Positions 219 through 20,316 of a DNA stretch of 40,090 bases are shown in pieces. Within the stretch, counting starts at the first letter, position 1; each line of letters begins with the position of its first letter. Both the position numbers and the translations under genes were made by a program. Source of the DNA: Sorangium cellulosum (GTDB lineage: Bacteria; Myxococcota_A; Polyangia; Polyangiales; Polyangiaceae); the NCBI GenBank assembly GCA_020720045.1, contig DYPH01000046.1, positions 1 to 40,090 of the forward strand. The letters are read 5' to 3'. A model generated the notes under the pieces. That model searched no databases and was not told the DNA's origin. It saw only the letters and a list, made by a program, of their open reading frames with translations.

Positions 219-3200
219 CTAGCGAAGCGACGGGATCGGGAGGAAGGCGTCCAGGAAGCGTTCCGGGCGGGCGATGCGCTGGGCAGACACCGCAAGCTCG
301 GCGCGCTCGACGCCGGCCCAGTCGCCGGAACGCCATGCGATCGCGCGTTCGATGGCGAAGCGGTAGCTTCCGAGCTTCGCCTCATCGAGCGTTCCGAGGA
401 TCTGTTCCGCGAAGGAATTCTCACTCCCGTCATTTCGCCCCACGGCACGTGCGTACGCGAAGGCCGCCGCAAGGCCGGTCGCCCAGGGGACATTCTCGCC
501 GCGGAGAGCGGCGATCGCGGCGAGAACGGTCGCGTCGTCGCCAACAGCAAGGCCGACCCGACCGCGCGTTTCCGCAGCAAGAATGCGGTTCGGCCGAAGC
601 TTATCAAGGCCGGACCCTTCGTAGCGGGCATCGGTCTCGCGGAGGAGCGCCTGCGCACTTGAAACGTCCCCCTCGTAGAGGAAGGAGATGCAGCGACTCC
701 ATGCACTCTGCAAGTGTTGGAGGTGGAATCCGTCGAGGGCCCACGAAGCGGTCGCTTCTTCGGCGTCGCGACGGGCACCGACCGGGTCGTCCCGGAAAAG
801 GTGGACGAGGTTCGGCACCCCGACGCGGAGTGCGGTCTCGGCGAACTTGTCACCGATGGCGCGCGCGGCCAAACGCGCACGCTCAACTGCATCTTCCAAG
901 CGAGCGAATTCGCCGAAATATCCGAAGGCCCAAAGCTCATTCTGGCGAACGGTACCGATCTCCCAGTGGGTGCCGACGTTGTGCTTCTCGAGTTCGAGGA
1001 GCGCCGGCACGGCACGCAGTGCGACCTGATCCCAGTGGCCGCGGACCGCCTGCGACATGCATCGAGCGGTGCTGATCCACGCCGCCGAGTAGGCGTCACC
1101 GTGTTGGGCGACGAGGCGATCGGCCTCGTCAAGGAGCCCGTCGCCGTCGCGTTCGCCTTCTTCGCCCCGCGTGGAGAGGAAGATCGCTTCCATGCCGAGG
1201 GCGCGGATCAGGCGCTTCGGTTCGCCGGCATCGAGCGAGAGCCGAAGATTCTCTGCATGATACACAAATCCGCGAAGTTGATCGGACATCAGGAAACCGC
1301 ACGCCGCGGCCCAGGCGGTATCGATCCGCTCAAGGGCACCGAGTTCAATCGCTTCTTCCGTGCGCAGTCGATACGCCCGCCCACGCAGCGCGAGGCGGCC
1401 GCGGGAGAAGAGAAACATCGGCACCTTGAGAAAGGGGCGCACAAGCGGAAGACCGACGTCGTCGAGGGCCCCATTGAGCTGGCGCTCCCCGTCATCAATG
1501 TATCCTGCACGCAAAAGCGTTTCTGCGGCGCGGCGCCGGAGAACACGCCCACGACGGCCTCCATGCACGGTGGCGGCGCGGAGGAAGAGGTCGGCCGCTT
1601 CGCGAGCGCGGCCGCCGTTTGCAAGCGCAGTGGCGAGAGAGACAAGCAATTCCGCCGTGGAACGCCCTTCGGCCTCCGCACGCCGCAGCAGGTATCGATA
1701 GGCGTTCGCGGCGCGGTCGAAGGCGAGCGCACGCTCGGCCCCCTCCGCGAGCCGAATCGCGAGCGGCCGGGCCCGCGCGTGATCCTCGGCGCCGGCGAAA
1801 TGGAAAAAAAGCGCATCGTCGTCGACCGGTTCGCGGCTTGCGAACGCTTCGCCGAAGCGACGGTGGAGGCGTCGGCGGGCTTCGTCGTCAAGGCGACTCC
1901 GCACCGCCTCGCGAACTTTGCCGTGGTAGGGCTCGACGGGGTCGGTCGCGCGAAGACCATCGAGCTTCACCAGACGCCCGAGTTTCATGCGCTTTACGTG
2001 CTTGAAGGCAATCGACGGATCGACGCCAGCCACCTGGGCGATGAGCGGTTGCGGGAGCGGCTTAATCGCCAGGGAAAGCGCTTCAAGCATGCGGCGCGCA
2101 TCGTCTTCGAGAGAGTCGACGCGGGCGAGCAAGGCTTCGACGAGGCGGTGCTCGCCGGAGGTTCCGGCGGTGGCGAGGCGCGACGAACGGAGGAGTTCGT
2201 CCAGCAAAAACGGGTGTCCGGAGGAAGCCTCGACGATGGCGTCGACGTCGGCGTCGGGATGGGCGCCCCGCGCGACTGCCGCCTCGACGAAGGCCAAGCA
2301 TTCGGCGCGTGGGAGCGGGCCCACGACGACGACCTCGGGAGATACATCTGCAAAAACGCGAGAATCTGGGCGCTCACGTGCAGACACGACGACGAAGAGG
2401 CCGATCGGAGTTGGTCGGCGGAGCAGGGCAGCGAGGAGGCCGCGGCTGTCGTCGTCGGCCCATTGGAAGTCATCAAAAGCGAGCACGACGGGCACTTCAC
2501 GGGCGATCCGGGCGAAGAGCTCTCGGGCCTGGGCAAACGCCTCACGACGGCGTTCGATAGGGTCGACGGGCCTCGTCGGTTCTTCGAGATCGATGCGTTC
2601 CAAGAGCGGAACAAGCACCGGAAAGCTCTCGGCGAGCGTCCAGGCAGAGCCGGTCAAAAAGCGCGCGACGTCTTCGGCGACGAACCGGTCGAGCCATTGT
2701 GCGATCTGCGCAAAGATCCGATCAAAGGCATTGAAGGGGACCGCTTCATCGGGATGACAGCGACCTGCGAGAACGAGTGGTGCCGGGCGACGCGCCGAAA
2801 GCTGGTCGCGAAACATATTGAGAATATGGGACTTTCCGATCCCTGACTCCCCCTCAAGCAGCACGATCGGCGTCGGCTGGCGCTCGCCGCGTTCACTACG
2901 CGGCGGTGGCGATGAGGGGCGGTGAGAATCGGCATCGAGCTCGCTTGTCGACGTCGCTGCCGGTGGAAGCACATTCCGAAGAATGCGCTCGCGCTCCGCG
3001 CGCACCGCGCCGAAAGCTGTGTAGAGCACATCCATCTCCCGCTGGCGACCGACGAAGATCTCCTCATCGCTCGGCGCGATGGGGGCGCTCCCTAGCGATG
3101 GCGGGAACAGACTGAGCCCCGCCTCGAGAACGGTGAGGATCGATTCGGCATCGGGCCGGGCCTCCGGCGTCGGCGAAAGCAGAGCCATCGCGAGATCGAT

Positions 3201-4118
3201 AAGGTCGTCGGGGGCGTCGGCGGCGAACTCGACCCGTAGGCGGGGCTTGCCTCGACGCTTGGCGGCGAGGACGTCTTGAAGCGTCCCCTCGAAGGGGTCG
3301 CGCCCAGCAAGGACTTGGTAGAGCAAGATCCCGACGGCGTAGAAATCGGACGCGGCCGTGGCGCGACGCCCGGCGGCGTGCTCGGGGGCGATCGTGAGCG
3401 GAGTGCCAGCCATCCGCCCTTGGCGGCGGGCGGGGTCGCTGTCAACAGCAATGCCGAAGTCGATCAGGACGAGGCGATCGCGGTCGGTTACGAGCACATT
3501 GCTCGATTTGACGTCCCGATGGATCTTCCCGGCGTCGTGGAGATACCGAAGCGCTCGAACCAATTGAATGAGGAGGCGGCGCAGGCGCTTCGGGTCGCAA
3601 CGTTCGGCGAAAGGTACCGGGTGAAAAAGTTCGACGGGGCTCGGCCGCCCGTGCTCGTCTGCGCGACTAAGGGGCGGAAGGGCGAGCGTTTGACTGCCAC
3701 AAATGAGATTTGAAAAAGAGTCGGGGCGAGTGGGAGTGTTTCGCCCCGACTGAAAGCGATCTTCCGGCGGCGAGGTGCGGGCGATCGCCTGCAAGAACTC
3801 TTCGCCACGGACGAGCTCCATGGTGAAGTACCAAAGGTCATTTTCGACGAAAAGCTCTCCGAGAGAAACGAGATTTTCGTGGGCCAGGTCCTGGCAACGC
3901 CTAAATTCGCGTTTGAATTCCTCGAGAGCTCCCGCACTACGACCTGCGAGGGTCTTTAGTGCGACCGCCCCGCCAGTCTCGGCGTCATGGGCTTCGTAGA
4001 CAGTCCCCATGCCCCCGGCGCCGAGGCGACGGAGAATGCGGAACCGCCCGAGCGTCCGTGGCGAGGAAGAATCGGCTCCGAAGAACCGCGGATCGAACTC
4101 GGATGACTCCATGTTCAT
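219..4118 (-). CDS. Ser/Thr protein kinase fused to a STAND/AAA_16 NTPase and a TPR-like C-terminal region (PknK-like), about 1300 aa
   Basis: ORF 219..4262 on the minus strand. Hanks kinase motifs are present (GAGGMGTVYEA, HRDVKSSNVLV, DFGIA, APE). Downstream lies a Walker A (GESGIGKS) and a Walker B-like hhhhDDFQWADD. A long Ala/Leu/Arg-rich helical repeat region follows. The first in-frame ATG that leaves about 27 aa before the kinase core is at 4118 (MNMESSEF). The ORF stays open upstream to 4262. Confidence 0.85.
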   Translation of the reverse strand: MNMESSEFDPRFFGADSSSPRTLGRFRILRRLGAGGMGTVYEAHDAETGGAVALKTLAGRSAGALEEFKREFRRCQDLAHENLVSLGELFVENDLWYFTMELVRGEEFLQAIARTSPPEDRFQSGRNTPTRPDSFSNLICGSQTLALPPLSRADEHGRPSPVELFHPVPFAERCDPKRLRRLLIQLVRALRYLHDAGKIHRDVKSSNVLVTDRDRLVLIDFGIAVDSDPARRQGRMAGTPLTIAPEHAAGRRATAASDFYAVGILLYQVLAGRDPFEGTLQDVLAAKRRGKPRLRVEFAADAPDDLIDLAMALLSPTPEARPDAESILTVLEAGLSLFPPSLGSAPIAPSDEEIFVGRQREMDVLYTAFGAVRAERERILRNVLPPAATSTSELDADSHRPSSPPPRSERGERQPTPIVLLEGESGIGKSHILNMFRDQLSARRPAPLVLAGRCHPDEAVPFNAFDRIFAQIAQWLDRFVAEDVARFLTGSAWTLAESFPVLVPLLERIDLEEPTRPVDPIERRREAFAQARELFARIAREVPVVLAFDDFQWADDDSRGLLAALLRRPTPIGLFVVVSARERPDSRVFADVSPEVVVVGPLPRAECLAFVEAAVARGAHPDADVDAIVEASSGHPFLLDELLRSSRLATAGTSGEHRLVEALLARVDSLEDDARRMLEALSLAIKPLPQPLIAQVAGVDPSIAFKHVKRMKLGRLVKLDGLRATDPVEPYHGKVREAVRSRLDDEARRRLHRRFGEAFASREPVDDDALFFHFAGAEDHARARPLAIRLAEGAERALAFDRAANAYRYLLRRAEAEGRSTAELLVSLATALANGGRAREAADLFLRAATVHGGRRGRVLRRRAAETLLRAGYIDDGERQLNGALDDVGLPLVRPFLKVPMFLFSRGRLALRGRAYRLRTEEAIELGALERIDTAWAAACGFLMSDQLRGFVYHAENLRLSLDAGEPKRLIRALGMEAIFLSTRGEEGERDGDGLLDEADRLVAQHGDAYSAAWISTARCMSQAVRGHWDQVALRAVPALLELEKHNVGTHWEIGTVRQNELWAFGYFGEFARLEDAVERARLAARAIGDKFAETALRVGVPNLVHLFRDDPVGARRDAEEATASWALDGFHLQHLQSAWSRCISFLYEGDVSSAQALLRETDARYEGSGLDKLRPNRILAAETRGRVGLAVGDDATVLAAIAALRGENVPWATGLAAAFAYARAVGRNDGSENSFAEQILGTLDEAKLGSYRFAIERAIAWRSGDWAGVERAELAVSAQRIARPERFLDAFLPIPSLR

Positions 4119-4153
4119 GGGCGTTCCGATGACTCCATGTTCATGAGCATTCC
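4102..4153. repeat. 26-bp tandem direct duplication (24/26 identical) spanning the kinase start codon region
   Basis: gatgactccatgttcatgggcgttcc (4102-4127) is followed directly by gatgactccatgttcatgagcattcc (4128-4153). This is read directly from the sequence. Confidence 0.85.
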
Positions 4154-4277
4154 TAGGTCGGTCGACGTCATCGGGAGAGCTTGGCGCGCCCCCCCCTCGG
4201 CATCGACCGCAAAGCACCAAGATGTTCGGCTGACTTGCCCAAGGGCGTGGCGACAGCGCCACGATTCAACCGGAAGG

Positions 4278-4967
4278 GTGAGTTTACACCAAAAATATTT
4301 TGCGATAGCTGAAATAAACGGACCGCTCGCAGGACTCCCCTGTGAAGCCGATGAATTCCCCCTCACTGCTGCTCCTTCCAGCGCGTGCCACCGCCCCGCC
4401 GTCGGCCGAGCCAACCGCGGTAGCCCCCATGGCGTTGGCGAATCGGTACACGCGGTAGTCGCCCTCCGTCCACTGCTTCGCGCAGTCGTCGCAAAGACCC
4501 TCGGCCGCCCGCTCGCCGATTCCTTCGTCGACGAAGCGTTGCAAGAGGCGATGACGGAAGTCCTCGCTGCCCTCCCCTCGCGCCGCGGCGGCGACGATGA
4601 CAGCCGTGCGCTGCGGAGTTTCGTCGTCGCTATCGCCGCGAATTGCTCCCGAAACGCCATCCGAGGCTTCCAGCGCCGCCGCGCCGAGAGCCCCCTCGAC
4701 GAGCCGAGCAGCGACCCTACTCTCGGTGCACTTGTCGGCCCCCCCTTGGGCGAGGCACTGGAAGCGCGCTCCGACCTGCGCGCAATCCAGGAACGGATCG
4801 CTCAGCTCCCCGAGGGGCAACGCAGAGCATTCATTGGTTTTTTTCTCGAAGAGAAGAGCTACGAAACGCTCGCAGCCGAGTTCGCCGTCCCCATTGGGAC
4901 GGTCGCCACCTGGATCTTTCGCGCAAAGAGCGCGGTCGCGTCCGTTGCGCCGAAGGACCATCGATGA
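4278..4967 (+). CDS. ECF (group IV) sigma-70 family RNA polymerase sigma factor; start uncertain
   Basis: Frame of ORF 4137..4967. A region 2-like segment (HAVVALRPLLRAVVAKTLGRPLADSFVDEALQEAMTEVLAAL ... ALRSFVVAIAANCSRNAIR) and a region 4 HTH (LPEGQRRAFIGFFLEEKSYETLAAEFAVPIGTVATWIFRAKSAV) are present. No canonical in-frame start lies within about 30 codons of region 2. GTG 4278 and ATG 4137 are the only upstream options. The stop overlaps the next ATG (ATGA). Confidence 0.7.
   Translation: MSLHQKYFAIAEINGPLAGLPCEADEFPLTAAPSSACHRPAVGRANRGSPHGVGESVHAVVALRPLLRAVVAKTLGRPLADSFVDEALQEAMTEVLAALPSRRGGDDDSRALRSFVVAIAANCSRNAIRGFQRRRAESPLDEPSSDPTLGALVGPPLGEALEARSDLRAIQERIAQLPEGQRRAFIGFFLEEKSYETLAAEFAVPIGTVATWIFRAKSAVASVAPKDHR
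4282..4320 (+). promoter_or_regulatory. AT-rich island in the kinase/ECF divergent intergenic region; candidate promoter for the ECF operon
   Basis: tttacaccaaaaatattttgcgatagctgaaataaacgg in a roughly 70% GC background. TTTACA is a 5/6 match to a -35 hexamer. No convincing -10 element was found. Confidence 0.3.
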
Positions 4968-5431
4968 AAGCGCCCCTGCCCCACCTGTTTTCCGGCGAAC
5001 ACCTTTCCGAGTTCGGCCTCTCCGTCGCTGCCGATGGCGAAGTCACCCACCTCAGCGCGGAAGCGCAGGAGCACCTCGCGCGCTGCCCGAGCTGCGAGCT
5101 TCAGGTCGCTACCAAAGCGCTCGAAGTGCTCGAATTACCTACAGACGTACTTGCGAACGCGGCGCTGCCACCCTTCCAACGATCCCCGTCGGCGCTGCGC
5201 GCGCTCGTCCGCCCGATCTTTGCCGCATTTGCCATCGGCGGCCTTGGACTCGCTTTGCGCGTTGCGACCCTCGACCGCGCCGCGCTCCGCGAGACGGCGC
5301 GAACCCTTCGCGCCTTTGCCCATGCGGCCCCGAGCGGTCAGCCGCTCTTGTCGCTCTTCGTCGCCGTTTGCGCCACGGCGCTCGCGATCGCCATCATTCG
5401 TCGTTTGCCCGCCCCCCAGGAGTCCCGATGA
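4964..5431 (+). CDS. Anti-sigma factor, zinc-finger (ZAS-like, HxxxCxxC) N-terminal domain with one TM helix, 155 aa
   Basis: ATG 4964 overlaps the sigma stop. Motif EHLARCPSCE is present. Hydrophobic stretches IFAAFAIGGLGLALRVA and LLSLFVAVCATALAIAIIRRL are present. Its position directly after the ECF sigma supports the call. Confidence 0.7.
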   Translation: MKAPLPHLFSGEHLSEFGLSVAADGEVTHLSAEAQEHLARCPSCELQVATKALEVLELPTDVLANAALPPFQRSPSALRALVRPIFAAFAIGGLGLALRVATLDRAALRETARTLRAFAHAAPSGQPLLSLFVAVCATALAIAIIRRLPAPQESR

Positions 5432-6639
5432 ACCGCTATTCTTTCGCAACTTTCGTCGGCTTGTCTGCACTCCTCATGATCGCTCGCCCGGCGCTTGCCG
5501 ACGGCGGACACACCTTCCAGACCGAAGGGCGCTGGGAGGACGACCGCCCCGTCACTCTCGAAATTGAAGCCAAAAGCCGCCACGAAGCCCTCGGTGCGCT
5601 GGCGGCGGCGACCGGTCTCCAGATTGTGGCCCCGGCCGAAGAGGCGCCCCATCCGATCAGTCTCCACGTGAAGGAAATCGCCCCGAAAGCGGCACTGGCC
5701 CTTCTGTTTTTAGAGGATGGCGCATTTGTTGCCACCCGCGACGGCGATCGAATCGCGGTCCGCCGGGAAGCAGCAAGCTCCGCCAAGATTGAGGCGCCTC
5801 CTCGCGAACAGAGCGGCGACAACGACGCGACTCTCTTTGGAATTACTCACCTCGCCAAAGGCGTTCACTACGACGATGTTTCCGTCGTTGGCGGCATCTC
5901 GCGCATTGAAGCGACCATCGACGGCGACTTGGAAGTAACCGGCGGCATTGTGACGCTCCTCCCCGGGTCGTCCGTGCATGGCGACATCCATGTGACCGGC
6001 GGCAAACTGGAAATCGAGGACGGGGTGCGCATCGACGGAGACGTCGACAACGTGGGGGGAATCGTCAACAAGCCGGACGATATACGTGTGCATTACACAA
6101 ATAACACCGGCGGCGTCGAAGGGGCTCGTCCGGGGCGGCTCCACCGCATCGCCGACGCGATTTCCTCGGCGGCGACGCGGTTTGCGGCGCTCTTCCTCGC
6201 CGGCGTCCTTGCCCTCGGCCTCGCGCGGCGCCGGGCTGATGGCATCCGGGTCGCGATCGCCACCCAGTTTGGCCGGTCGCTGGGGCTGGGGCTCGTTGCC
6301 GCCCTTGGAGCCGCGACGGCGATCGTCGTGCTCGCAGTGACCATCGTCGGAATTCCGCTGGCAGCGGCGGCATTTGGCGTCGCCATGGCGGCCGCTTACG
6401 TCGGGGCAGCCCTCACGCTCGCTACGGCCGGCGAGGCGCTGCTCGCGCACCGCATCCCCAGCCCGTGGAAGCGCCTCGCCGTTGTCTGCGCCGCCTTCGC
6501 GGTCCTCGGAATGATCCCGACGATCGGCGGGATTCTCGAAGCGGTTGTGTTTCTCGTCGGTTTCGGCGCCGTCGTAACCACGCGGGGGGGCGTCAGCAGC
6601 GCCGACGCGCCCATCCCGGCTAGCCCCTACCGCTCGTGA
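5428..6639 (+). CDS. Exported protein with an STN-like domain, a bactofilin-like beta-helix and a C-terminal 4-TM anchor, 403 aa
   Basis: ATG 5428 overlaps the anti-sigma stop (ATGA). Signal peptide MNRYSFATFVGLSALLMIARPALADG is present. The segment EALGALAAATGLQIVAPAE...ISLHVKEIAPKAALALLFLEDGAFVATRDGDRIAV resembles STN (secretin/TonB N-terminal) domains. Gly/Val-rich repeats (DLEVTGGIVTLLPGSSVHGDIHVTGGKLEIEDGVRIDGDVDNVGGIV) are bactofilin-like. Four hydrophobic helices lie at the C-terminus. Confidence 0.8.
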   Translation: MNRYSFATFVGLSALLMIARPALADGGHTFQTEGRWEDDRPVTLEIEAKSRHEALGALAAATGLQIVAPAEEAPHPISLHVKEIAPKAALALLFLEDGAFVATRDGDRIAVRREAASSAKIEAPPREQSGDNDATLFGITHLAKGVHYDDVSVVGGISRIEATIDGDLEVTGGIVTLLPGSSVHGDIHVTGGKLEIEDGVRIDGDVDNVGGIVNKPDDIRVHYTNNTGGVEGARPGRLHRIADAISSAATRFAALFLAGVLALGLARRRADGIRVAIATQFGRSLGLGLVAALGAATAIVVLAVTIVGIPLAAAAFGVAMAAAYVGAALTLATAGEALLAHRIPSPWKRLAVVCAAFAVLGMIPTIGGILEAVVFLVGFGAVVTTRGGVSSADAPIPASPYRS

Positions 6640-7528
6640 CCGTCACCGCGAGGTGAGGAATCGCGCGGCCACGTTCCGAAGTTTTCTCAAAGGGGACTCC
6701 TTGCGCAAGCAATAGGAGTTCCTTTTCTTTCTTGCGGACGTCGACGAGAAAACGGCCGGGGAGAAAGATCGGCTTCTTAAAGCGGGCATGAAGAGACAAA
6801 TCGCTGCTGGGGAGGTCGTCGATCGCCTCGCCAAGGGTCCGCGCAAGCGTCCAAAGTCCGTGGGCGATGGCTCGTTTGAACCCGAACGGTTTTGCCAAGA
6901 GAGCGTGCTGATGAATCGGGTTTCGATCGGAGGCAATCGCGCCATAACGTCGGCCGATGTTCTCGGGGACGGTAACGACCGCCGAGCGCAAAAGATCGCC
7001 AAAGGACGTGGTTTCGCCGTCGACGGTAGGTTCCTTGCCGGCGGTCTCGCGACCGGCGCTCTTGGAACCGCCAGCACCCGACCGGGCAAGAATCGTCGCC
7101 GTCCATGTGCCTTTGGGGACGCCAGCGACGGAGACGTCGGTGCGCAAATCAAAGAGCCACCCCTCGGAGGAATCCGGTCGCCACGGCCTGCAATTCCCAG
7201 CGGAGGCGGCAAGTTCAAGCACCGCCGACGCCGGGATCGGGGCGAGGAGCTCGACGCGATTTTCGATGTGAACGATGCCGAGCGCGCCGAAGGGGAACTG
7301 GCGGTCGGCAAAAAGATCGAGGTGGAGCTTGGCCGCCGCAATTTGGGGCACCAGGAGCGGGAGCGTCGAACCCGCCGGAAGGCCGCAGATCGCGGCATAG
7401 GCGGCGATGCGTTCTGCGTCCCAGCGGGCTTCGCCGGTTGCTGCCAGCTGCGGAAATTCCGCCGCCGCCCGCAGACCAGGACGCTTGGCAAAAAACAGGT
7501 CGAGATGCTTTTTCATTGCCGGATTCAT
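6620..7528 (-). CDS. MaoC-like (R)-specific enoyl-CoA hydratase/dehydratase, double hot-dog fold
   Basis: ORF 6620..7576. Start taken at M17 (MNPAMKKHLDLFF), which has a GGAGGT Shine-Dalgarno immediately upstream. The MaoC signature YGAIASDRNPIHQHALLAKPFGFKRAIAHGLWTLA is present. Its ATG overlaps the stop of the upstream gene. Confidence 0.85.
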   Translation of the reverse strand: MNPAMKKHLDLFFAKRPGLRAAAEFPQLAATGEARWDAERIAAYAAICGLPAGSTLPLLVPQIAAAKLHLDLFADRQFPFGALGIVHIENRVELLAPIPASAVLELAASAGNCRPWRPDSSEGWLFDLRTDVSVAGVPKGTWTATILARSGAGGSKSAGRETAGKEPTVDGETTSFGDLLRSAVVTVPENIGRRYGAIASDRNPIHQHALLAKPFGFKRAIAHGLWTLARTLGEAIDDLPSSDLSLHARFKKPIFLPGRFLVDVRKKEKELLLLAQGVPFEKTSERGRAIPHLAVTVTSGRG

Positions 7529-9324
7529 CGTACCTCCGCGCCCCAGAGCGCCTGCGTGCGTAGCTCTTCCGGCCATCGAGAGCCGCGATTCCCGGGAATT
7601 TCGCGGTCGTCTTCACTCACGACGAAGTTGCCAACATCTCCGAACGCGCGCTCCTGATTTCGTCGCGGGCCGAGGCTACGAAGGGGGGCATTCCTTCCAG
7701 ACTGACGAACAAAGATCACATCGTGGGGCCCGGGTCTCAAATCAACAAGTGCCCCCTTCCGTGCCGGGTTCAATAGCTGTTCTTCGTTGCCAATCGGGTC
7801 AGCGACGGTCTTCGCCTTGAGCGTCCATACAAGGAGGGAGGTCGGGTCGCGGTCGCCATAAAGCCCGGAAAGCAGGTCCCGCTTCTTAAAGAAGGTCTTG
7901 CCGATGTCGTTCTGGTTGACCGGGCCTGCCATCAGGCAGATCCCGGCAAGGAGATCACATCCCTCGGGAATTTCCGTGCAGCCGGCGATCTCGACGACGA
8001 GAGCGCTACGCGCAGCCGCCGCCCCGAAGGCACGAACGGCGTGGGGGAAGCGCTTCCCTTCCCGCTCAACTTCGCGCCGCGAGAGACCGCCCAGATAGAT
8101 CCGCTGCCCGGCGAGCGCGAAGGCCTTCTTGCCGCGCTGGGTGTTTCGGGAGAGCGCCTTGCCGGTCGCAAAATCGGCCCACTTCGGCAAATGTTTTACG
8201 ATCAGGTCGGTGATCTCTTCCAATTCATGGCGGACGCCACGGAGGCGCTCTTTCCCACCGGGTGTGAGCACGTCCATCCGCTCAAGAAGGAGGAGGTCCT
8301 TCGTCCGCTCCCGCGGGATGTTCAGAAAGTGAGCGAACGCATTGTAGGCGGCGCGCCCCGCCATCACCGTCAGCTCTTCGGGGACGTCCATCGCCTGGCG
8401 ATGCTTGTAGGGCGCAGGCGCTTGCTCTTCGGCGTTCACTCCCGGTTGGATGCGCTCGGAGCGCAACGAGCAGAGCATCGCTCCGAGCTTCCGCGCGGAA
8501 CTCTTCTCGAGGGGGAAAGCCTCTTCCGGCTTCGCGTAGCCGACCTGAGCCACGATTGCGATCGTGTAGCCGGCACGCCGATCCTCGGCGCGGAGCCCAA
8601 CCAGCGCTTCGAAGGCGGCGAGCGCTTCCGGGTCGGTCGGGCGATCGAAGGGTTCGAGGAACACTTGAGCCCGGCGGCGCCCCTCGGAGGCGACGACCGA
8701 CGCCCGCTCCAGAGCGTCGGCCAGCACGCCGATGTGGAGCTCCGTAAGGTAGGAGATCGTCGGAATGTCTGGCGTATGAAAGACCGCCTTTCGCAGCGCG
8801 CGAAGGGGGACTGTCCAGAGGTCCTTTCCGGGCTGATGTCCAATAAAGGTGAGGAGCTTCGTGAATGGCGTTACGTAGGGGCGCGCCAAAATCACATGTG
8901 TGTACGCGGCCCCGTCAAGGACGGGAGCTTCGCGACGCCCCATCTTTTTCAGGAGTTCTGAGGCCTTCGCCGAATCTTCCGGCCCGAGCACGATGCTGCG
9001 GTGGCCGCGAAAATTCGTCGACTGGCGCGCCGCGAGAATCCCAAGTGTCGATTCCTCAAAGAGTTCTTCTTCGCGGAGCACCGGACCGGGAACAAAGCCG
9101 GTAGGGCGCGGAAGCGAGAGCATTTCCATCGCCCGTTCGGCCTCCGCGCGCGTCAGGCTCGGGCGCGTGCGGAAACCGATCGGTGAACTCGAATCGAGCG
9201 CTTCCGGCAGGTGGTAACGACCGCGTTTCTCGCCGGGGGCGGCAAACGTCGCCGGTCGATGGACGCGCTCGGCGTTCGGCGGCGGCTCGATCGGGACGAA
9301 GCGGAGGGCTTTGCTTTCGCTCAT
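7525..9324 (-). CDS. Conserved hypothetical protein, about 600 aa, with no recognisable catalytic motif
   Basis: ORF 7525..9435. Start taken at MSESKALRFVPIEPP (ATG 9324). The composition is protein-like (Lys/Glu/Phe/Tyr/Ile present), unlike the Arg/Gly-rich opposite-strand ORF 8041..8961. It is transcribed divergently from argS. Its stop overlaps the MaoC ATG. Confidence 0.7.
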   Translation of the reverse strand: MSESKALRFVPIEPPPNAERVHRPATFAAPGEKRGRYHLPEALDSSSPIGFRTRPSLTRAEAERAMEMLSLPRPTGFVPGPVLREEELFEESTLGILAARQSTNFRGHRSIVLGPEDSAKASELLKKMGRREAPVLDGAAYTHVILARPYVTPFTKLLTFIGHQPGKDLWTVPLRALRKAVFHTPDIPTISYLTELHIGVLADALERASVVASEGRRRAQVFLEPFDRPTDPEALAAFEALVGLRAEDRRAGYTIAIVAQVGYAKPEEAFPLEKSSARKLGAMLCSLRSERIQPGVNAEEQAPAPYKHRQAMDVPEELTVMAGRAAYNAFAHFLNIPRERTKDLLLLERMDVLTPGGKERLRGVRHELEEITDLIVKHLPKWADFATGKALSRNTQRGKKAFALAGQRIYLGGLSRREVEREGKRFPHAVRAFGAAAARSALVVEIAGCTEIPEGCDLLAGICLMAGPVNQNDIGKTFFKKRDLLSGLYGDRDPTSLLVWTLKAKTVADPIGNEEQLLNPARKGALVDLRPGPHDVIFVRQSGRNAPLRSLGPRRNQERAFGDVGNFVVSEDDREIPGNRGSRWPEELRTQALWGAEVR

Positions 9325-9433
9325 TGACGGGACTGATTGCCGGAAGCGAATCGCGGATACAAGCGTGCGTTTGTTGGGGGCCTTCGAACGACACCCCATG
9401 ACGGCTGCGGCAAAACGCGGTAACCGCGGGCCC

Positions 9434-11164
9434 ATGCGACTCGAACACGCCGTGGAAGCCCTTGGAAAGACCGCCCTTCACGAAGCGCTCGGCCTCGACG
9501 CCCCGGCGGTGGTCCGTCGCTCCCAAGACGAAAAACACGGCGACTACCAGCTGAATGGCGTCCTCCCGCTCGCGAAGAAGCTCGGGAAGAACCCGCGCGA
9601 GCTCGCTGCGCTCGTCGCCGAGAAGCTGCAGAATCCATCTATCTTTGCAAAGATCGAGGTCGCAGGCCCCGGCTTCATCAACCTGAAGCTCACCGACAGC
9701 TGGCTCGCCGAACAGCTCGCACTTCTTGCGAACGACGCGAACGACGGCATCGAGCAGGTCGCCGCCGAAACGATTGTCGTCGACTTTTCCGGCCCAAACA
9801 TCGCGAAGCAGATGCACGTCGGCCACTTGCGCTCGACGATTCTTGGCGACTCGCTCGTCAAGATTTTGCGTGCGCAGGGCCATAAGGTCTTGGGCGATAA
9901 CCACCTCGGTGACTGGGGGACACAATTCGGGCTCCTGATCGTCGGCATGCGAACCTTCGGGGACGCAGAAGCGATGAAGAAGGACCCGATCGTCGAGTTG
10001 GAGCGGGTCTACAAGCTCGCGAGCGAAGCGAAAAAGGACGAAGTTTTTGCAAATGAAGTGCGCGCCGAACTCGCAAAACTTCAGGCGGGGGATCCGGAAA
10101 ATAAGAAGCTCTGGGAGCAGTTCGTCGCGGTCACTCGCGAGAGCCTCGATGTCGTCTATGCTGACCTTGCTGTAACCTTTGATTATTGGCTCGGCGAGAG
10201 CGCGTACAACGACGCCCTCCCCGGCGTCGTCGCGACGGTCAAAGCGGCCGGCATCGCCCGCGAAGACAACGGCGCATTGTGTGTATTCTTCAAGGAGCTG
10301 GAAGATGCTCCGAAGGATCTCGCCGCCAATGAGCAGCCCTTCATCGTCCAGAAGAGTGACGGCGCTTTCAATTACGCAACGACCGATATCGCGACGGTGT
10401 TTCACCGGTCGACGGTGTTCCAGGCAGATCGGAGCATCTATGTCGTCGACAACCGGCAGTCGCTCCACTTCAAGCAGCTCTTTGAGGTCGCGAAGCGCCT
10501 CGGAGACCGGCAGAAGCTGACCCACGTCGGCTTCGGTTCGGTCCTCGGGCCAGATGGCAAGCCGCTGAAGACGCGGGACGCGAGCGGCAAGGTGATCACG
10601 CTTAAGAACCTCCTCGATGAGGCGACGGAAACGGCAAAGAAGCGCCTCGTCGAAGAGGAACTGGATCTCCCCGCGGACGAGCTCGATGCTGTTGCAAAAG
10701 CGGTCGGCATCGGTGCCGTCAAATACGCGGATTTGCGCCAAAATCGCCTCAGCGACTACACCTTCGACTGGGACAAGATGATTGCGTTCCGCGGCAACGC
10801 GGGCCCCTATCTTCAATACGCATTCGCGCGGACTCAATCGATCTTCCGCAAAGCGGAGGTCACTCCGGCGGAGGCCCTCAAAGCACCTTTCGTCCTCGCC
10901 GAGCCCTCCGAGCGTGCCCTCGCGCTGGCCCTTCTCGCCTACCCGGATGCGGTCGCCGGTGCCGCCGAACACCTCGAGCCCCATCGGATTTGCGATCACC
11001 TCTATGGGCTCGCCCGTGCGGTGGCGAGCTTCTACGAGGAGTGCCCAGTTTTGAAGAGCGAAGGGGCGACCCGCGCGTCGCGTCTCGCGCTGGTAGCGAC
11101 GGCAGGAAAGCAGCTGGAAGCGGGATTGAAGCTCCTGGGAATTACTCCTATCGCCCGGATGTAA
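9434..11164 (+). CDS. argS: Arginine--tRNA ligase
   Basis: ORF 9311..11164. Start taken at MRLEHAVEAL, which places the conserved HGDYQLNGVLPLAKKLG about 31 aa from the N-terminus as in ArgS. HVGH class I motif is present (QMHVGHLRS). The C-terminus is ...ITPIARM. The KMSKS-equivalent region is present. Confidence 0.95.
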   Translation: MRLEHAVEALGKTALHEALGLDAPAVVRRSQDEKHGDYQLNGVLPLAKKLGKNPRELAALVAEKLQNPSIFAKIEVAGPGFINLKLTDSWLAEQLALLANDANDGIEQVAAETIVVDFSGPNIAKQMHVGHLRSTILGDSLVKILRAQGHKVLGDNHLGDWGTQFGLLIVGMRTFGDAEAMKKDPIVELERVYKLASEAKKDEVFANEVRAELAKLQAGDPENKKLWEQFVAVTRESLDVVYADLAVTFDYWLGESAYNDALPGVVATVKAAGIAREDNGALCVFFKELEDAPKDLAANEQPFIVQKSDGAFNYATTDIATVFHRSTVFQADRSIYVVDNRQSLHFKQLFEVAKRLGDRQKLTHVGFGSVLGPDGKPLKTRDASGKVITLKNLLDEATETAKKRLVEEELDLPADELDAVAKAVGIGAVKYADLRQNRLSDYTFDWDKMIAFRGNAGPYLQYAFARTQSIFRKAEVTPAEALKAPFVLAEPSERALALALLAYPDAVAGAAEHLEPHRICDHLYGLARAVASFYEECPVLKSEGATRASRLALVATAGKQLEAGLKLLGITPIARM

Positions 11165-11491: not shown

Positions 11492-11893
11492 CTACTCGGC
11501 GCGCTTGCCGGTGCGGAAGCTTCGAACATGGGAGATGAGCCCGTCGACCACCTCCGGCGTATCGCCAAGGTCGCTACTCGCGGGCATCGTTACGCTCTTG
11601 CCGACGGCGCCACCGCCGCCGAGGATCGCCTTGCGGAGCTCAGCGTCGGTGACGGCCGCTTGGAAGGCCTCGTCGGTAAAGTCTTGGGGCTTTGGCGTCA
11701 GGCCGGCGAGGCCCTTTCCGTCGCCACCGTGGCACCCGGCGCAGCGGTTGGCGTAAGCTTCTGCAGCATTTCCGCCAACTTTTGTAAGAGGTTGTGCGAT
11801 CCGCTTGGGGTCCTGGTCGCAGCCGAAGAGCACGGCGAGCCCGAGCGCAATTGGCCAACGTACCGACCGCCAGTTGCGTGTGCAGGCGAGCAT
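11492..11893 (-). CDS. Mono-haem c-type cytochrome (class I), lipoprotein, 133 aa
   Basis: C-terminal part of ORF 11492..13000. Start at MLACTRNW (ATG 11893). Lipobox LFGC is present. Haem site CAGCHGG is present, with distal Met (VTMPASS). Confidence 0.75.
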   Translation of the reverse strand: MLACTRNWRSVRWPIALGLAVLFGCDQDPKRIAQPLTKVGGNAAEAYANRCAGCHGGDGKGLAGLTPKPQDFTDEAFQAAVTDAELRKAILGGGGAVGKSVTMPASSDLGDTPEVVDGLISHVRSFRTGKRAE

Positions 11894-12017
11894 GGCCGTG
11901 GCCCCTAGCGCTGAAGTCCCGAGACGACAAATATCCTTTCGTCGGCACCCGCTTCGTGAGGTAACGTTGCACACTTCCGGCTTGCGCGCTTTTTTCGCGC
12001 CGGAAAGGGAGCCACCA

Positions 12018-14066
12018 ATGCGCCTAACGTCCCGCTTCTTCCCCCTTGTCCTCGCCCTCCCCTTCGCCGCTATGGTCGGCTGTTCTTCCAGCCCGTCGAC
12101 GGGGACCGATATTCCCGATGGCGCCACGAGCGACGACGCGTCGACCGCCGGCGACGGACCGGCGCTCGACGGTGGTGGCGCCCAGGATGGTGGCGCCCTG
12201 AAGGACGGCGCAACGACCGGCGACAGCGCGGTCACGGACGGGGCAACCGCCGCCGATGGGGGCGGTGACGGCGGGACCGTCGATGCGAACGTGCCGTGCG
12301 GCGAGGCGGCGGGTGCAAAATGCGCCGATGGTCGTACCTGCGCGAAAGATGCAGACTGCACCTCTGACTGGTGCAACGCCGGTAACGTCTGCGAAGCGGT
12401 TGGCCCGGCGGCCCACGTGGACGGCAGACAAAACGCGGGCGAGACCGGCATCGACTGCGGTGGAACGGCGCTCCCAAAGCTCTGCGTTGGCGGGCAGGCG
12501 TGCGTCGATGACGGCGACTGCGAGGGGAGCTGTGTGCAAAATACATGCACCCCTGGCACACGGACCGACGGGAAACTGACAGCGTCGCTCGGCGAAACCG
12601 ACATCGATTGTGGCGGCGCGCTTGCGGACGTGAACGAGGTCGCTGCGGCCGCCTGCATCGCTGGCCAGAAGTGCCTCGCGGCGACCGACTGCCGCTCCGG
12701 CGAATGCGATGCGAACGGCCTTTGCACCGGATTCCTGCCTGGCGTGAAGGACGGCGATGAGACCGACGTGGACTGCGGTGGCGCCCTCGTCAACCCGGAC
12801 ACCGGGGCGGTTGCCCCGCGCTGCGACGACCAGAAGTCGTGCGCCGACGACGGCGATTGTAAGAGTGCACTCTGCAATCTTCGCACGATGAAGTGCACAG
12901 CCGGTGTATCCTGCAAGAATCGCGCAAACGGCGGGGAAACCTGCGGCGTTGGTGAGGACGGCGCCGAAGATTGCTGCGAGTCGCTTCCGCTTCCGGGCAC
13001 GCCGAACGTGCGTCTCGACCGCTACGAAGTCACCGCCGGCCGCGTACGAGCGTTCGTGAATGCCGTCGGACCGAACATTCGGGCGTGGGTCGCGGCTCAG
13101 ATCGCGGCAGACCCCGACGGTAAGCTCGCAAAGCAGCTCCCCCCGCGCCTTCGTACGCTGCTCCCGGCAACGGCGAGCGGCGAACTTGGCGCCAACATCC
13201 AGCTCGGCGCCCTGACGATGGACACCGATCGCCCCTCCGAACAAGGCTCCCTTCAGGGCTGCTACATCGGGAGCGGCGCCTACGGCCATTCGACCTACGG
13301 CTTCGATACGGCGACCTACAAGTCCCTGTATGGAGCGGGTAATTTTAGCGCGCGCATCAGCCAAAACGAAACCGACAAGAAGTCGATGAACTGCGCGCCC
13401 TACTGGATGGCGGCCGCCTTCTGCGCTTGGGACGGTGGCTTCCTGCCGACCTATGAAGAATACATCCAAGTGTGGGCCCGGAAGCCGAACAACTCGCTGC
13501 AGACGTTCCCGTGGGGGGCTGACGCCGTGGGGAAGGTCTTCGACTACCTCAACGCCAAGGGGATCCAGGCGGGGAACGCACCAATCTACAACTTCCCCAT
13601 CTTTAACTGGGCGAATGACCAAGCGGGACTGATCGCATCGCCGGGCCGCTTCCCCGACGACGCGACGACGATCACGAGCGCTGACGGGCGTGCCTGGTAC
13701 GATATCGGCGCAAATATGATGGAATATACCGCGATTGAACTCGACTACGCCCGCTACGGCGTCGCCGGGTGGCCGGCGGCCGGCTTTGACGTCGATGCGG
13801 CCAACGCGCCGCGCGCGTTCTGCGACGTCACCGCAGCAACTCCCCCGGTGGGAAGCCCGGATCGCTGCGCGGTCGTCTCCGGAAATACGACAACTTACGG
13901 GAAGATCCGCGGAGCGGGCGCCGGGACGCCGGAAGATCCCTACGGCATGTACCGCACGCGTTGGATGGGCGGCTCCTGGGAAGTGCATGCACCGAGCACG
14001 CGATGGATCGCCACCCAGACCCAGTACGGCAAGGCTGGCTGGCGTTGTGCACGCCCCGCAAACTGA
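12018..14066 (+). CDS. Lipoprotein with four 6-Cys repeats and a C-terminal FGE-sulfatase (SUMF1)-like domain, 682 aa
   Basis: Within ORF 11805..14066. ATG 12018 is preceded by aaagggag. Signal peptide plus lipobox (AAMVGC). A Gly/Asp/Ala/Thr-rich linker follows. Four repeats of the form ETxIDCGG...C..GQ.C..D.DC.S..C..N..C are present. FGE-like motifs RYEVTAGRVRAFV, AAAFCAWDGGFLPTYEEY, GGSW...GWRCARP are present. Confidence 0.85.
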   Translation: MRLTSRFFPLVLALPFAAMVGCSSSPSTGTDIPDGATSDDASTAGDGPALDGGGAQDGGALKDGATTGDSAVTDGATAADGGGDGGTVDANVPCGEAAGAKCADGRTCAKDADCTSDWCNAGNVCEAVGPAAHVDGRQNAGETGIDCGGTALPKLCVGGQACVDDGDCEGSCVQNTCTPGTRTDGKLTASLGETDIDCGGALADVNEVAAAACIAGQKCLAATDCRSGECDANGLCTGFLPGVKDGDETDVDCGGALVNPDTGAVAPRCDDQKSCADDGDCKSALCNLRTMKCTAGVSCKNRANGGETCGVGEDGAEDCCESLPLPGTPNVRLDRYEVTAGRVRAFVNAVGPNIRAWVAAQIAADPDGKLAKQLPPRLRTLLPATASGELGANIQLGALTMDTDRPSEQGSLQGCYIGSGAYGHSTYGFDTATYKSLYGAGNFSARISQNETDKKSMNCAPYWMAAAFCAWDGGFLPTYEEYIQVWARKPNNSLQTFPWGADAVGKVFDYLNAKGIQAGNAPIYNFPIFNWANDQAGLIASPGRFPDDATTITSADGRAWYDIGANMMEYTAIELDYARYGVAGWPAAGFDVDAANAPRAFCDVTAATPPVGSPDRCAVVSGNTTTYGKIRGAGAGTPEDPYGMYRTRWMGGSWEVHAPSTRWIATQTQYGKAGWRCARPAN

Positions 14067-14082
14067 GTTAAATCAATACGTG

Positions 14083-14119
14083 AAATGCCCCGGCTCTCTT
14101 CGAGAGCCGGGGCATTTTC
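14083..14119. terminator. Bidirectional intrinsic terminator between the convergent FGE-lipoprotein gene and lon
   Basis: Perfect inverted repeat aaatgccccggctctc / gagagccggggcattt with a 3-nt loop, followed by a T-run (attttcgtt). It is A/T-flanked on both sides. Confidence 0.7.
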
Positions 14120-14129
14120 GTTGTGCCGT

Positions 14130-16529
14130 TCAACCGGAGAAGGCGACCGCCAAGGAATCCGCGCTCCCGACCACCGTCGGGAACGGCTCGAGGGCCGCAT
14201 CGAGGACCTCCTGCATGTCGCTCACGAAGACGAAGCGGAGTTCGTTCCGGACGTTTTCGGGGACGTCGTCGAGGTCGCGCTCACAGCGCTTCGGGAGAAT
14301 TACCGTCTTCATTCCAGCCCGATGGGCGGCGAGGACCTTGGCCTTGATCCCGCCGACGGGGAGCACCCGTCCACGAAGCGTGCATTCTCCCGTCATTGCG
14401 ACGTCGGCCCGCACGGCGCGCCCGGTGAAAAGGCTCGTAAGCGCGGTGAAAATCGTCACGCCGGCCGAGGGGCCATCTTTCGGGATCGCCCCCTGAGGGA
14501 CGTGGATGTGGACGTCTTGGCCGTCGAGGTTTGCTGCCTCGATGCCGAGGGCGGCCGCGTGGCTCCGCACGTAGGTGAACGCAGCGCGGGCCGATTCACG
14601 CATCACGTCACCAAGCTGACCGGTGATCTCGACGCCACCGCGCCCCGGCATGCGAGAGGTTTCGACGAAGAGGATGCTCCCGCCGACTGGCGTCCAGGCA
14701 AGGCCGGTCGCAACACCGGGGATAGCTACCGCTTCACGGACTTCGTCTTCGAAGCGACTCTTTCCGAGGCGGGCGCGGAGCGCCGCTTCGCCGATTTCGA
14801 CCGGCTCGGCGCCCGTCCCCGCGCGAGCAAGTGCCAGCGCAACCCCTCGAAGAAGCTTCCCAATCTCGCGATCAAGCTGGCGAACGCCCGCTTCGCGCGT
14901 GTAGTCGCGGACGAGCGTCGTCAGCGTCTCGTCGACGACGGTGACCTTCGCCAAATCGATCCCAAGCTCGGCGGCTCGCTTCGGGAGGAGGTGCTTACGT
15001 GCAATATGCACTTTCTCCGCGACCGTGTAGCCGGCGAGTTCGACGACCTCGAGCCGATCGCGCAAAGGGCCACTGAGATTTTCGATTTGATTTGCGGTGC
15101 AGACGAAGAGAACCTCGGAAAGATCGAAGGGGAGATCGAGATAATGATCTGTGAAAGTCCGGTTCTGTTCCGGATCGAGGACTTCGAGGAGCGCCGCCTC
15201 CGGGGAGCCCATCCATCCCTTTTCAAGCTTGTCGATTTCGTCGAGGAGGACGACCGGGTTTCTCACCTTCGCCTTGCGGAGGGCGCCGAGGATACGCCCG
15301 GGGAGCGCACCGACGTAAGTGCGCCGGTGGCCGCGAATATCAGCCTCGTCACGCACGCCGCCGAGGGCAACACGGACGAACGGGCGGCCGGTTGCATCGG
15401 CGATCGACTGACCGAGGCTCGTCTTGCCGACGCCGGGAGGACCGACGAGGCAAAGGAGGGGCGCACGCGTCGCCGTCGCGCCGCGGAGTTGGAGAACCGC
15501 CATGTGCTCAAGGATGCGTTTTTTGACATAATCGAGCCCTTCATGATCGGCATTCAAACGAGCTTCTATATCATTCAGTGTGGTGGTCTCTGCCCCATTT
15601 GCGCGGGCGTTCCACGGGAGCTCCGCGACGAATTCGAGCCAGGTGCGGAGGACGTTCGCTTCGGGGCCCTGCGCACCGTCGCGCAGCTTTCCGAGCTCGC
15701 GATCGACGGACGTTCGGACGTCGGCGGGGAGGTCGAGTTCGGCGAGGCGCGCCTCGAGTTTGTCGCCAGCGTCGCCTTCTCCGTCCCCGAGTTCTTTGCG
15801 AATCGCCTTGAGCTGTTCGCGGAGGACCGCCTCGCGCTGGTGCTTGCCGAGCTCCTTGCGGACGTCGCGATCGATCTTGGTGCGCACCTCCTCGCGGGCC
15901 TTTGCACTGAGAATTCGCTCGGTAAGGGAGCCGAGACGCCGCTTCAACGACCGCTCTTGGAGGATGGCTACCGCGGCGCCGAATTCCGCCTCGCTCCCGC
16001 CGCGGTCGCTTCCAGACACGCCGAAAAGGGCCGATGCAACGAGATCGGCGAGTTCGTCGGGGGCACCGACAACCGCGTCAACAGCATTGAGAATCGGCGC
16101 CGGAAGCGCGGGCATCGCTTGGATGGCGGCATGGAGCCGTTGGGCCTCTTCCACGCTCGCCGTCGGCGGCTCGCTATCTTCAAAGCTCACAAGCTCGGCC
16201 TGCCAGGCCCCATTGGATGCATTTTGCAAGGACCCGACCGCAACACGGCGGAGCCCTTCGAGGACGAGCGCGTAGTCGGTGTCGGAACGCCGCTTGACCT
16301 CACGGACCCGGGCGAGCGTTCCAACCGCGTGCATTTCCTCGACTCCCGGGTCCTCGGCTTGAGGGTCTTTCTGGACGAGAGCGACGACGAGATCGCCGGG
16401 AAAGATGCTGCGAACGAGGGAGAGCGAGCGGGGGCGACCGACGGCAAACGAAGCGGTCACCCCGGGGAACAGGACGGTCGCGCGGAGGGGCAGCGCGGGG
16501 ACGGCACGCGTAGGGATCGAAATCGACAT
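14130..16529 (-). CDS. lon: ATP-dependent Lon protease (LonN, AAA+ and S16 protease domains), 799 aa
   Basis: N-terminus LPLRATVLFPGV is typical of Lon. Walker A GPPGVGKTS is present. Catalytic DGPSAGVT Ser and KVLAAHRAGMKTVILP are present. GGAGAGGAG Shine-Dalgarno lies upstream of ATG 16529. Confidence 0.95.
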   Translation of the reverse strand: MSISIPTRAVPALPLRATVLFPGVTASFAVGRPRSLSLVRSIFPGDLVVALVQKDPQAEDPGVEEMHAVGTLARVREVKRRSDTDYALVLEGLRRVAVGSLQNASNGAWQAELVSFEDSEPPTASVEEAQRLHAAIQAMPALPAPILNAVDAVVGAPDELADLVASALFGVSGSDRGGSEAEFGAAVAILQERSLKRRLGSLTERILSAKAREEVRTKIDRDVRKELGKHQREAVLREQLKAIRKELGDGEGDAGDKLEARLAELDLPADVRTSVDRELGKLRDGAQGPEANVLRTWLEFVAELPWNARANGAETTTLNDIEARLNADHEGLDYVKKRILEHMAVLQLRGATATRAPLLCLVGPPGVGKTSLGQSIADATGRPFVRVALGGVRDEADIRGHRRTYVGALPGRILGALRKAKVRNPVVLLDEIDKLEKGWMGSPEAALLEVLDPEQNRTFTDHYLDLPFDLSEVLFVCTANQIENLSGPLRDRLEVVELAGYTVAEKVHIARKHLLPKRAAELGIDLAKVTVVDETLTTLVRDYTREAGVRQLDREIGKLLRGVALALARAGTGAEPVEIGEAALRARLGKSRFEDEVREAVAIPGVATGLAWTPVGGSILFVETSRMPGRGGVEITGQLGDVMRESARAAFTYVRSHAAALGIEAANLDGQDVHIHVPQGAIPKDGPSAGVTIFTALTSLFTGRAVRADVAMTGECTLRGRVLPVGGIKAKVLAAHRAGMKTVILPKRCERDLDDVPENVRNELRFVFVSDMQEVLDAALEPFPTVVGSADSLAVAFSG

Positions 16530-16749
16530 GCGAGGACTCCTCTCCGACGGGCCCCAGGCTCATCGGCAGCGATGGATCGCCCCCCCGCCGCTGCAGCCCG
16601 GGTTCCGGGCTTACGACCGCGCCGAGAAGCGGCACGGCGTGCGGGGCAAGCGTCCTCGCAACATCGGTCGGCCGCCTCAATCGTCAACCCCCGGACAATC
16701 GAGTTCGTCATGCGCCCGATCGTCGCGCCAGGATTGCTGACGAATTTAC

Positions 16750-19063: not shown

Positions 19064-19094
19064 CGGCGGAGGGTTTCGGCGCGGCGGCCCCCTG

Positions 19095-20234: not shown

Positions 20235-20277
20235 TGGAGGAAAGTATCGGGGATCGGGGTAATCCCCAAGGGCCGTC

Positions 20278-20316
20278 GACAAAAAAGAAGAGGCGAACCG
20301 TAGTGGTCCGCCTCTG
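20278..20316 (-). terminator. Intrinsic terminator closing the act-sco-cox operon
   Basis: The minus-strand transcript has hairpin gaggcggaccactacggttcgcctc followed by ttcttttttgt. It lies 25-60 nt downstream of the coxD stop. Confidence 0.6.

Follow-up and report, generated by a model that had tools for sequence, protein, structure and literature searches.

A DUF8173 membrane protein with an N0/STN domain and a bactofilin-like β-helix, encoded third in a predicted ECF sigma/anti-sigma operon of Sorangium cellulosum

The open reading frame (ORF) at positions 5428-6639 (+) of contig DYPH01000046.1 from Sorangium cellulosum, a stretch of 40,090 nucleotides hereafter called the window, encodes a membrane protein with an N0/STN domain and a bactofilin-like β-helix, and it directly follows the genes for a sigma factor of the extracytoplasmic function (ECF) group and a putative anti-sigma factor. 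On balance, this protein (the target) probably serves as the periplasmic sensing and membrane partner, or co-anti-sigma factor, of a transmembrane anti-sigma factor that is split in two and governs the sigma factor encoded beside it. We favor this reading because the three genes overlap as ATGA and retain their order in distant relatives, because the target and the anti-sigma factor recur as a single fused polypeptide to whose N-terminal part the window's anti-sigma factor aligns, because that anti-sigma factor appears to lack a sensor, because the N0/STN class is shared with domains of known signaling proteins, and because the split and fused forms are consistent in topology. The ECF sigma/anti-sigma operon is the decisive context for the target and was not remarked on in an earlier reading of this DNA, made from the sequence alone, which had drawn attention to the domain architecture of the ORF. 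The existence of a widespread and uncharacterized module of sigma factor, anti-sigma factor and putative sensor is the actual finding.

The target is a genuine gene, as its product is 100% identical to an already catalogued protein (P0001) and has 1,724 homologous clusters. The ORF runs from ATG 5428 to TGA 6637-6639 and specifies 403 amino acids. The homologues come from an exhaustive HMMER search of 1.84 billion cluster representatives (clusters at 50% identity); the threshold for the 1,724 clusters was E≤1e-3, and 71 of them reached E≤1e-30. When genome contigs were scanned with the single protein, one close relative only was recovered, in a Myxococcales metagenome-assembled genome, and the taxonomic spread of the family rests on metagenome proteins.

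The gene at 4278-4967 (+) encodes a sigma-70 family factor that has both the sigma2 and the sigma4 domain expected of the ECF group. Its product matched Pfam Sigma70_r4_2 with an E value of 4.4e-13 and TIGR02937 with one of 5.7e-13, above the cut-off of that model, and gave a weak match to Sigma70_r2 (E 3e-3). The next gene, at 4964-5431 (+), encodes 155 amino acids, with the sequence HLARCPSC, an HxxxCxxC motif, in a cytoplasmic N-terminal domain that matched Pfam zf-HC2 only weakly (E 0.07). Two hydrophobic segments follow (approximately residues 80-103 and 125-149), and because only about 25 residues separate these transmembrane helices, the protein looks like a zinc-type anti-sigma factor that possesses no sensory domain of its own. 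The sigma stop codon overlaps the anti-sigma start as ATGA (4964-4967), and the anti-sigma stop codon overlaps the target start in the same way, so that the three genes are predicted to be translationally coupled, with the target as the third gene of the operon.

The start of the sigma gene in the window is uncertain. In a 95%-identical relative (L005, from the Myxococcales metagenome-assembled genome), the start codon is the equivalent of ATG 4351. Relative to that locus the window has one base fewer in a run of C near 4424, which places ATG 4351 out of frame; the frame that opens there meets a stop after 35 codons. The sole upstream in-frame start is GTG 4278, which lies within an AT-rich, promoter-like stretch. 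The shift near 4424 reflects either a genuine frameshift or a mistake in the assembly. When the regions upstream of the sigma genes were compared at six loci, only L002 showed a match to an ECF-type promoter (AAC...CGT), from which we do not conclude that the operon is autoregulated.

The order sigma factor, small protein with two transmembrane helices, target was found at all informative loci that encode an N0-containing homologue, down to 26-30% identity (L001, at 26% identity, L002-L004, the P0020 contig and L009), and the stop and start codons of these homologous genes usually overlap. Two further loci, L008 and L010, have partial ORFs for the protein with two transmembrane helices upstream of the target homologue. 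Beyond this three-gene order, nothing was conserved in the homologous neighborhoods examined.

At least 17 clusters (approximately 530-690 amino acids) have an anti-sigma domain and two transmembrane helices fused in front of the periplasmic/DUF8173 module. The HxxxCxxC motif is present in 12 of these, and some fusions include the N0 domain whereas others lack it. The 155-residue anti-sigma factor of the window can be aligned with the anti-sigma portion at the N-terminus of the fusion proteins; the fused N-termini homologous to it carry the motif, and those of P0171 and P0174 carry PF13490. All three fusion genes that were located on contigs (L006, L007 and L013) lie directly after, and overlap, an ECF sigma gene. 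Such Rosetta-stone fusions speak for a single functional unit made up of the anti-sigma factor and the target. In the fused proteins the former signal peptide is the third transmembrane segment, in agreement with the topology predicted for the split form.

The combination of an STN-like domain with a bactofilin-like repeat, which the sequence-only reading did not recognize, is one for which we found no specific literature, and the same holds for DUF8173; the published reclassification of ECF sigma factors was among the works searched. It is not a one-off, since 117 of 168 sampled relatives share the order of N0 domain, β-helix and transmembrane domain, and its C-terminal part already has a Pfam name, DUF8173. 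About 39 of the 168 have no N0 domain, some of them being fragments. An AlphaFold2 model of the whole target, built on a 50-sequence family alignment, was confident, with a mean predicted local distance difference test score (pLDDT) of 87.9, and its predicted template modeling score of 0.55 makes the relative placement of the domains unreliable.

Residues 1-24 (5428-5499) have the hydropathy and motif of a Sec signal peptide, with the n-region MNR, a hydrophobic core and a predicted cleavage site after ALA (ALA-DG); in the model, a helix at residues 3-18 precedes this site. A signal peptide of like kind was present in 45 of 46 aligned family members having an N-terminus, most of these peptides ending in a small-x-small sequence directly before the conserved domain, and this family-wide conservation bears out the signal peptide that had been claimed for the target.

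The domain that follows (residues 28-115; 5509-5772) is confirmed as a member of the secretin N0/STN class, an assignment established at the family level. A domain profile built from 33 relatives and compared with PDB sequences found the N0 domain of Neisseria PilQ (4ar0) with an E value of 5.8e-14, other PilQ proteins, among them that of Myxococcus (3jc8), with values of 1e-6 to 1e-12, HofQ with 2e-3 and the signaling domain of PupA with 7e-3. Pfam STN (PF07660) was matched by 16 of 50 family members (best E 7.6e-10); the window protein by itself gave no match to it at E≤1. In the model, residues 30-113 form the β-α-β-β-α-β-β fold of N0 domains, and the domain modeled alone reached a pLDDT of 92.9 and matched the structures of PilQ N0, DotD, the N0 domains of GspD and InvG, PupR/PupB, and 4m0h, a FecR-type anti-sigma domain from Parabacteroides. 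The STN-like domain of the earlier reading thus stands, and the N-terminal domain was placed in no other fold. TonB-dependent transducers have signaling domains of the same class, as do FecR/PupR-type anti-sigma factors in their C-terminal domains; 2a02, 4m0h, 6ovm and 9cuv are structural neighbors from such signaling proteins.

A flexible linker (residues 116-130; 5773-5817), disordered in the model at residues 118-128, where the pLDDT falls below 50, separates the N0 domain from the β-helix. It corresponds to a length-variable insert in the family alignment, longer and rich in proline and alanine in many relatives and short, at about 15 residues, in the window protein.

The β-helix occupies residues 131-226 (5818-6105; residues 133-225 in the model) and includes, at residues 167-213, the Gly/Val repeat that had been called bactofilin-like. 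It is right-handed, with about five windings of approximately 18 residues and GG spacings of 17-19 residues, as in the bactofilin fold, and bactofilin is its closest compact structural match. The sequence evidence fell below threshold. Pfam Bactofilin (PF04519) matched the target with an E value of 0.007 and 17.1 bits, below the gathering cut-off of 27.9, and 17 of 50 relatives gave weak matches (best E 1.4e-5). A profile restricted to the β-helix, compared with PDB sequences, found BacA at an E value of 0.18 and TtBac at 1.3, and the BacA score was no better than those of unrelated left-handed hexapeptide-repeat enzymes. "Bactofilin-like" is therefore confirmed as a description of the fold only and does not extend to membership in the family.

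The C-terminal anchor, for which four helices had been counted, has five membrane helices in the model. Residues 237-384 (6136-6579) form the DUF8173-type membrane domain, recognized by its model helices, invariant columns and charge bias and by a precomputed match to Pfam DUF8173 (PF26514) for the identical protein P0001 and most homologues. At L013 the order zf-HC2, Bactofilin, DUF8173 likewise puts DUF8173 C-terminal to the β-helix. The model helices (residues 237-265, 267-279, 281-304, 308-339, 346-360 and 364-384) comprise a first transmembrane helix, a short basic helix (267-279) that is predicted to be cytoplasmic, and two helical hairpins, whose turns hold the residues G308-I309-P310 and P364, invariant in the family alignment. 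A Foldseek search with the full model found no significant PDB match to the membrane domain, which has no solved relative. Foldseek matches to SV2A (probability 0.21) were dismissed as weak, and a weak similarity to YccF around the GIP turn (E approximately 0.03) did not recur among 50 members at E≤0.01 and was not used.

Averaged over the family, lysine and arginine residues together number 3.6 after the first transmembrane helix, 1.7 in the segment that joins the hairpins and 3.4 in the C-terminal tail, as against 0.0 in both hairpin turns. Because these positive-inside counts agree with the signal peptide and with the topology of the anti-sigma fusions, the N0 domain and β-helix are predicted to be periplasmic and the C-terminus cytoplasmic. 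The repeat segment is accordingly placed where the sequence-only reading had put it, outside the cytoplasm. The predicted cytoplasmic tail (6580-6636), rich in lysine and arginine, has a conserved (G/S)P[YF]R motif, the PYR of which is found at residues 400-402 (6625-6633) of the target. The motif occurs near the C-terminus of 75 of 160 relatives, including N0-less members, and could be a docking or degradation signal.

Based on these features, we propose a mechanism in which the 155-residue zinc-motif anti-sigma factor would keep the sigma factor at the inner membrane, while the mature form of the 403-residue protein would stand beside it, its five-helix DUF8173 domain binding the anti-sigma hairpin within the membrane. 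The rigid bactofilin-like β-helix would serve as a stalk at the membrane surface, projecting into the periplasm, and the N0/STN domain on its flexible linker would contact a periplasmic or outer-membrane partner; elsewhere, the N0/STN module makes protein-protein contacts in the periplasm. Binding or loss of the partner at N0, or damage to the stalk, would be relayed by the membrane domain to the hairpin of the anti-sigma factor. The most plausible route would be exposure of the hairpin to intramembrane proteolysis, leading to release of the sigma factor. The analysis itself establishes which domains are present, their predicted topology, the conservation of the operon and the recurring anti-sigma fusions; physical contact between the target and the anti-sigma factor, the direction of regulation, the ligand and the proteolytic step are what we infer.

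Several considerations weigh against a co-anti-sigma role. Plain regulon targets, too, are typically co-transcribed with a sigma/anti-sigma pair. At the loci examined, no secretin or TonB-dependent transducer that might be the partner of the N0 domain was found beside the operon, and it is doubtful that a linker of only some 15 residues would allow the domain to reach the outer membrane. The sigma gene of this assembly has the apparent N-terminal frameshift described above. Finally, some N0-less members with a signal peptide of their own, P0006 and P0172 (Niveispirillum), have no sigma gene nearby, so that the β-helix/DUF8173 module must have a sigma-independent function; the core of the family thus predates its linkage to sigma factors and does not strictly depend on it.

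The existence of core-family members without a sigma gene, together with the frequent presence of effector genes in autoregulated ECF operons, also favors a different explanation, in which the target would be an envelope-stress effector within the sigma factor's own regulon, by analogy with LiaG/YvlB-type membrane-anchored β-helix proteins, co-transcribed and without a role in signaling. We regard this as unlikely, because it is hard to reconcile with repeated, evolutionarily stable fusions at the anti-sigma position behind a sigma gene and leaves the anti-sigma factor without any sensor domain. Furthermore, none of the 50 family members matched the toastrack families DUF4097, DUF2154 or DUF2807. 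The comparison with LiaF/LiaG-type modules, which the sequence-only reading had raised, consequently holds as an analogy only. The Lia/Psp modules (LiaF, LiaG, YvlB) resemble the target in tying a membrane-anchored single-stranded β-helix to envelope signaling, but no sequence relationship to them was detected in those 50 members, and the target has as its partner an ECF sigma/anti-sigma pair instead of a two-component system or PspA.

A second alternative takes its cue from the N0 domain, whose strongest sequence similarity is to PilQ N0 (E 5.8e-14, 4ar0). The target might assist or monitor a secretin machine, either that of a type IV pilus or that of type II secretion, with its N0 domain inserting into, or competing for, the contacts of the secretin N0 ring with inner-membrane partners of the PilP/GspC type; the sigma factor would then serve as a readout of secretin assembly. 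The host is a Myxococcales bacterium; myxobacteria are rich in secretins, and mislocalized secretins are a classic envelope-stress signal. However, no pilus or secretion genes were conserved beside the operon at any locus examined, and as an interaction module the N0 fold is generic. We consider a secretin monitor improbable, and it is a special case of the co-anti-sigma reading, not a true alternative to it. It is still less probable, and in our judgment very much so, that the target is a genuine periplasmic bactofilin, an end-to-end polymer forming a membrane-anchored structural scaffold with no signaling function: bactofilin is indeed the closest compact structure match and 17 of 50 relatives show weak Pfam matches, but the sequence similarity lies below the family threshold and is no better than that to left-handed hexapeptide helices, both ends of the β-helix run into other domains, which should hinder filament contacts, and the linkage to sigma and anti-sigma genes would be left unexplained.

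Among known systems, the mode of working that we propose for the co-anti-sigma factor is most like cell-surface signaling of the FecR/PupR type, although the target is not a member of that family. In both, an ECF sigma factor is under the control of an inner-membrane anti-sigma system whose periplasmic part ends in a domain of the STN/N0 fold on a β-rich stalk. The FecR domain (PF04773) matched neither the target, the anti-sigma factor nor any of 50 relatives, and no TonB-dependent receptor was found among the neighboring ORFs scanned, which cover part of the window. The domain order is inverted relative to FecR/PupR, in that the STN domain lies at the N-terminus of a separate protein with its own signal peptide. 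The target is anchored by a C-terminal five-helix domain, whereas FecR/PupR proteins have a single N-terminal transmembrane helix; its stalk is a bactofilin-like β-helix, and the anti-sigma domain is found on another polypeptide or fused through three extra transmembrane segments.

The other likenesses are more partial. With the N0 domains of secretins (PilQ, GspD, InvG; PF07660) the target shares a fold, a periplasmic location and, for PilQ, significant profile similarity, but no N1-N3 or secretin domains come after its N0 domain, which belongs to an inner-membrane protein instead of an outer-membrane channel. In contrast to the bactofilins (BacA, TtBac; PF04519), its β-helix is predicted to be periplasmic and not cytoplasmic, is flanked by other domains and scores below the gathering cut-off. 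In RseA-RseB and SigM-YhdL-YhdK, operons of sigma factor, anti-sigma factor and accessory protein, the accessory protein modulates the stability of the anti-sigma factor. The resemblance to these systems is limited to the three-gene logic, the proteins being unrelated; in the present system all of the periplasmic mass resides in the accessory protein, which in some cases is fused to the anti-sigma factor.

A broader proposal, which we put forward only tentatively, is that the DUF8173 proteins constitute an undescribed trans-envelope class of ECF regulators, in which a five-helix domain would guard the hairpin of a zinc anti-sigma factor and present an N0 domain on a β-helix stalk, and in which signal peptidase would convert the fused into the split form, this cleavage being a site-1 step. 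The idea of interconversion comes from the fusion junctions, as nearly all fusions keep a small-x-small sequence (ARA, AHA, AQA, ASA and others) exactly at the point where the split protein is cleaved. A third transmembrane segment resembling a signal peptide is seen in P0064, P0137, P0149, P0161, P0165, P0166, P0169, P0171 and others, and signal peptidase might cut such proteins into the two-protein form. In Bacillus, cleavage of RsiV by signal peptidase is reportedly a site-1 step.

No group of alternative sigma factors is larger than that of the ECF sigma factors, and to our knowledge the input signal and sensing mechanism are unknown for most ECF groups. Our analysis ties a large, unstudied family of membrane proteins (DUF8173) to ECF sigma/anti-sigma pairs through operons and fusions, and assigns it an anatomy of N0 docking domain, rigid periplasmic β-helix and five-helix membrane domain. 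If the target and its relatives do act as co-sensors, they would represent a new design for passing envelope information across the inner membrane and a use of a bactofilin-type fold outside the cytoplasm. No established idea is overturned, and the sigma/anti-sigma logic is conventional.

At the L013 locus, which encodes the fused homologue P0174, a Peptidase_M48 gene (1898-3355 of that locus) lies directly upstream of the sigma gene and in the same direction. On this single observation, its product may be a candidate for a protease that acts on the anti-sigma factor.

The genes that flank the operon in the window include those for a Ser/Thr kinase with an AAA_16 domain, a MaoC-like dehydratase, ArgS and an M20 peptidase, as well as ORFs without Pfam matches. 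No conserved partner was found among them, and the flanks differ at every homologous locus. Four long ORFs, at 7525-9435 (-), 11805-14066 (+), 14085-17036 (+) and 18008-20282 (-), had no Pfam match at E≤1e-5, and in a sequence of 65% GC some of these may be in the wrong strand or frame. The divergent neighbor at 219-4262 (-) encodes the Ser/Thr protein kinase, of 1,300 amino acids, which combines an AAA_16 ATPase domain with a long helical region at its C-terminus. It likely starts at an internal Met codon near 4121 rather than at GTG 4262, and it is not conserved beside the operon at other loci. On the other side, the ORF for the MaoC-like dehydratase (6620-7576, -) converges on the target, and the 3' ends of the two genes overlap by about 20 bases (6620-6639), which leaves no room for a separate terminator.

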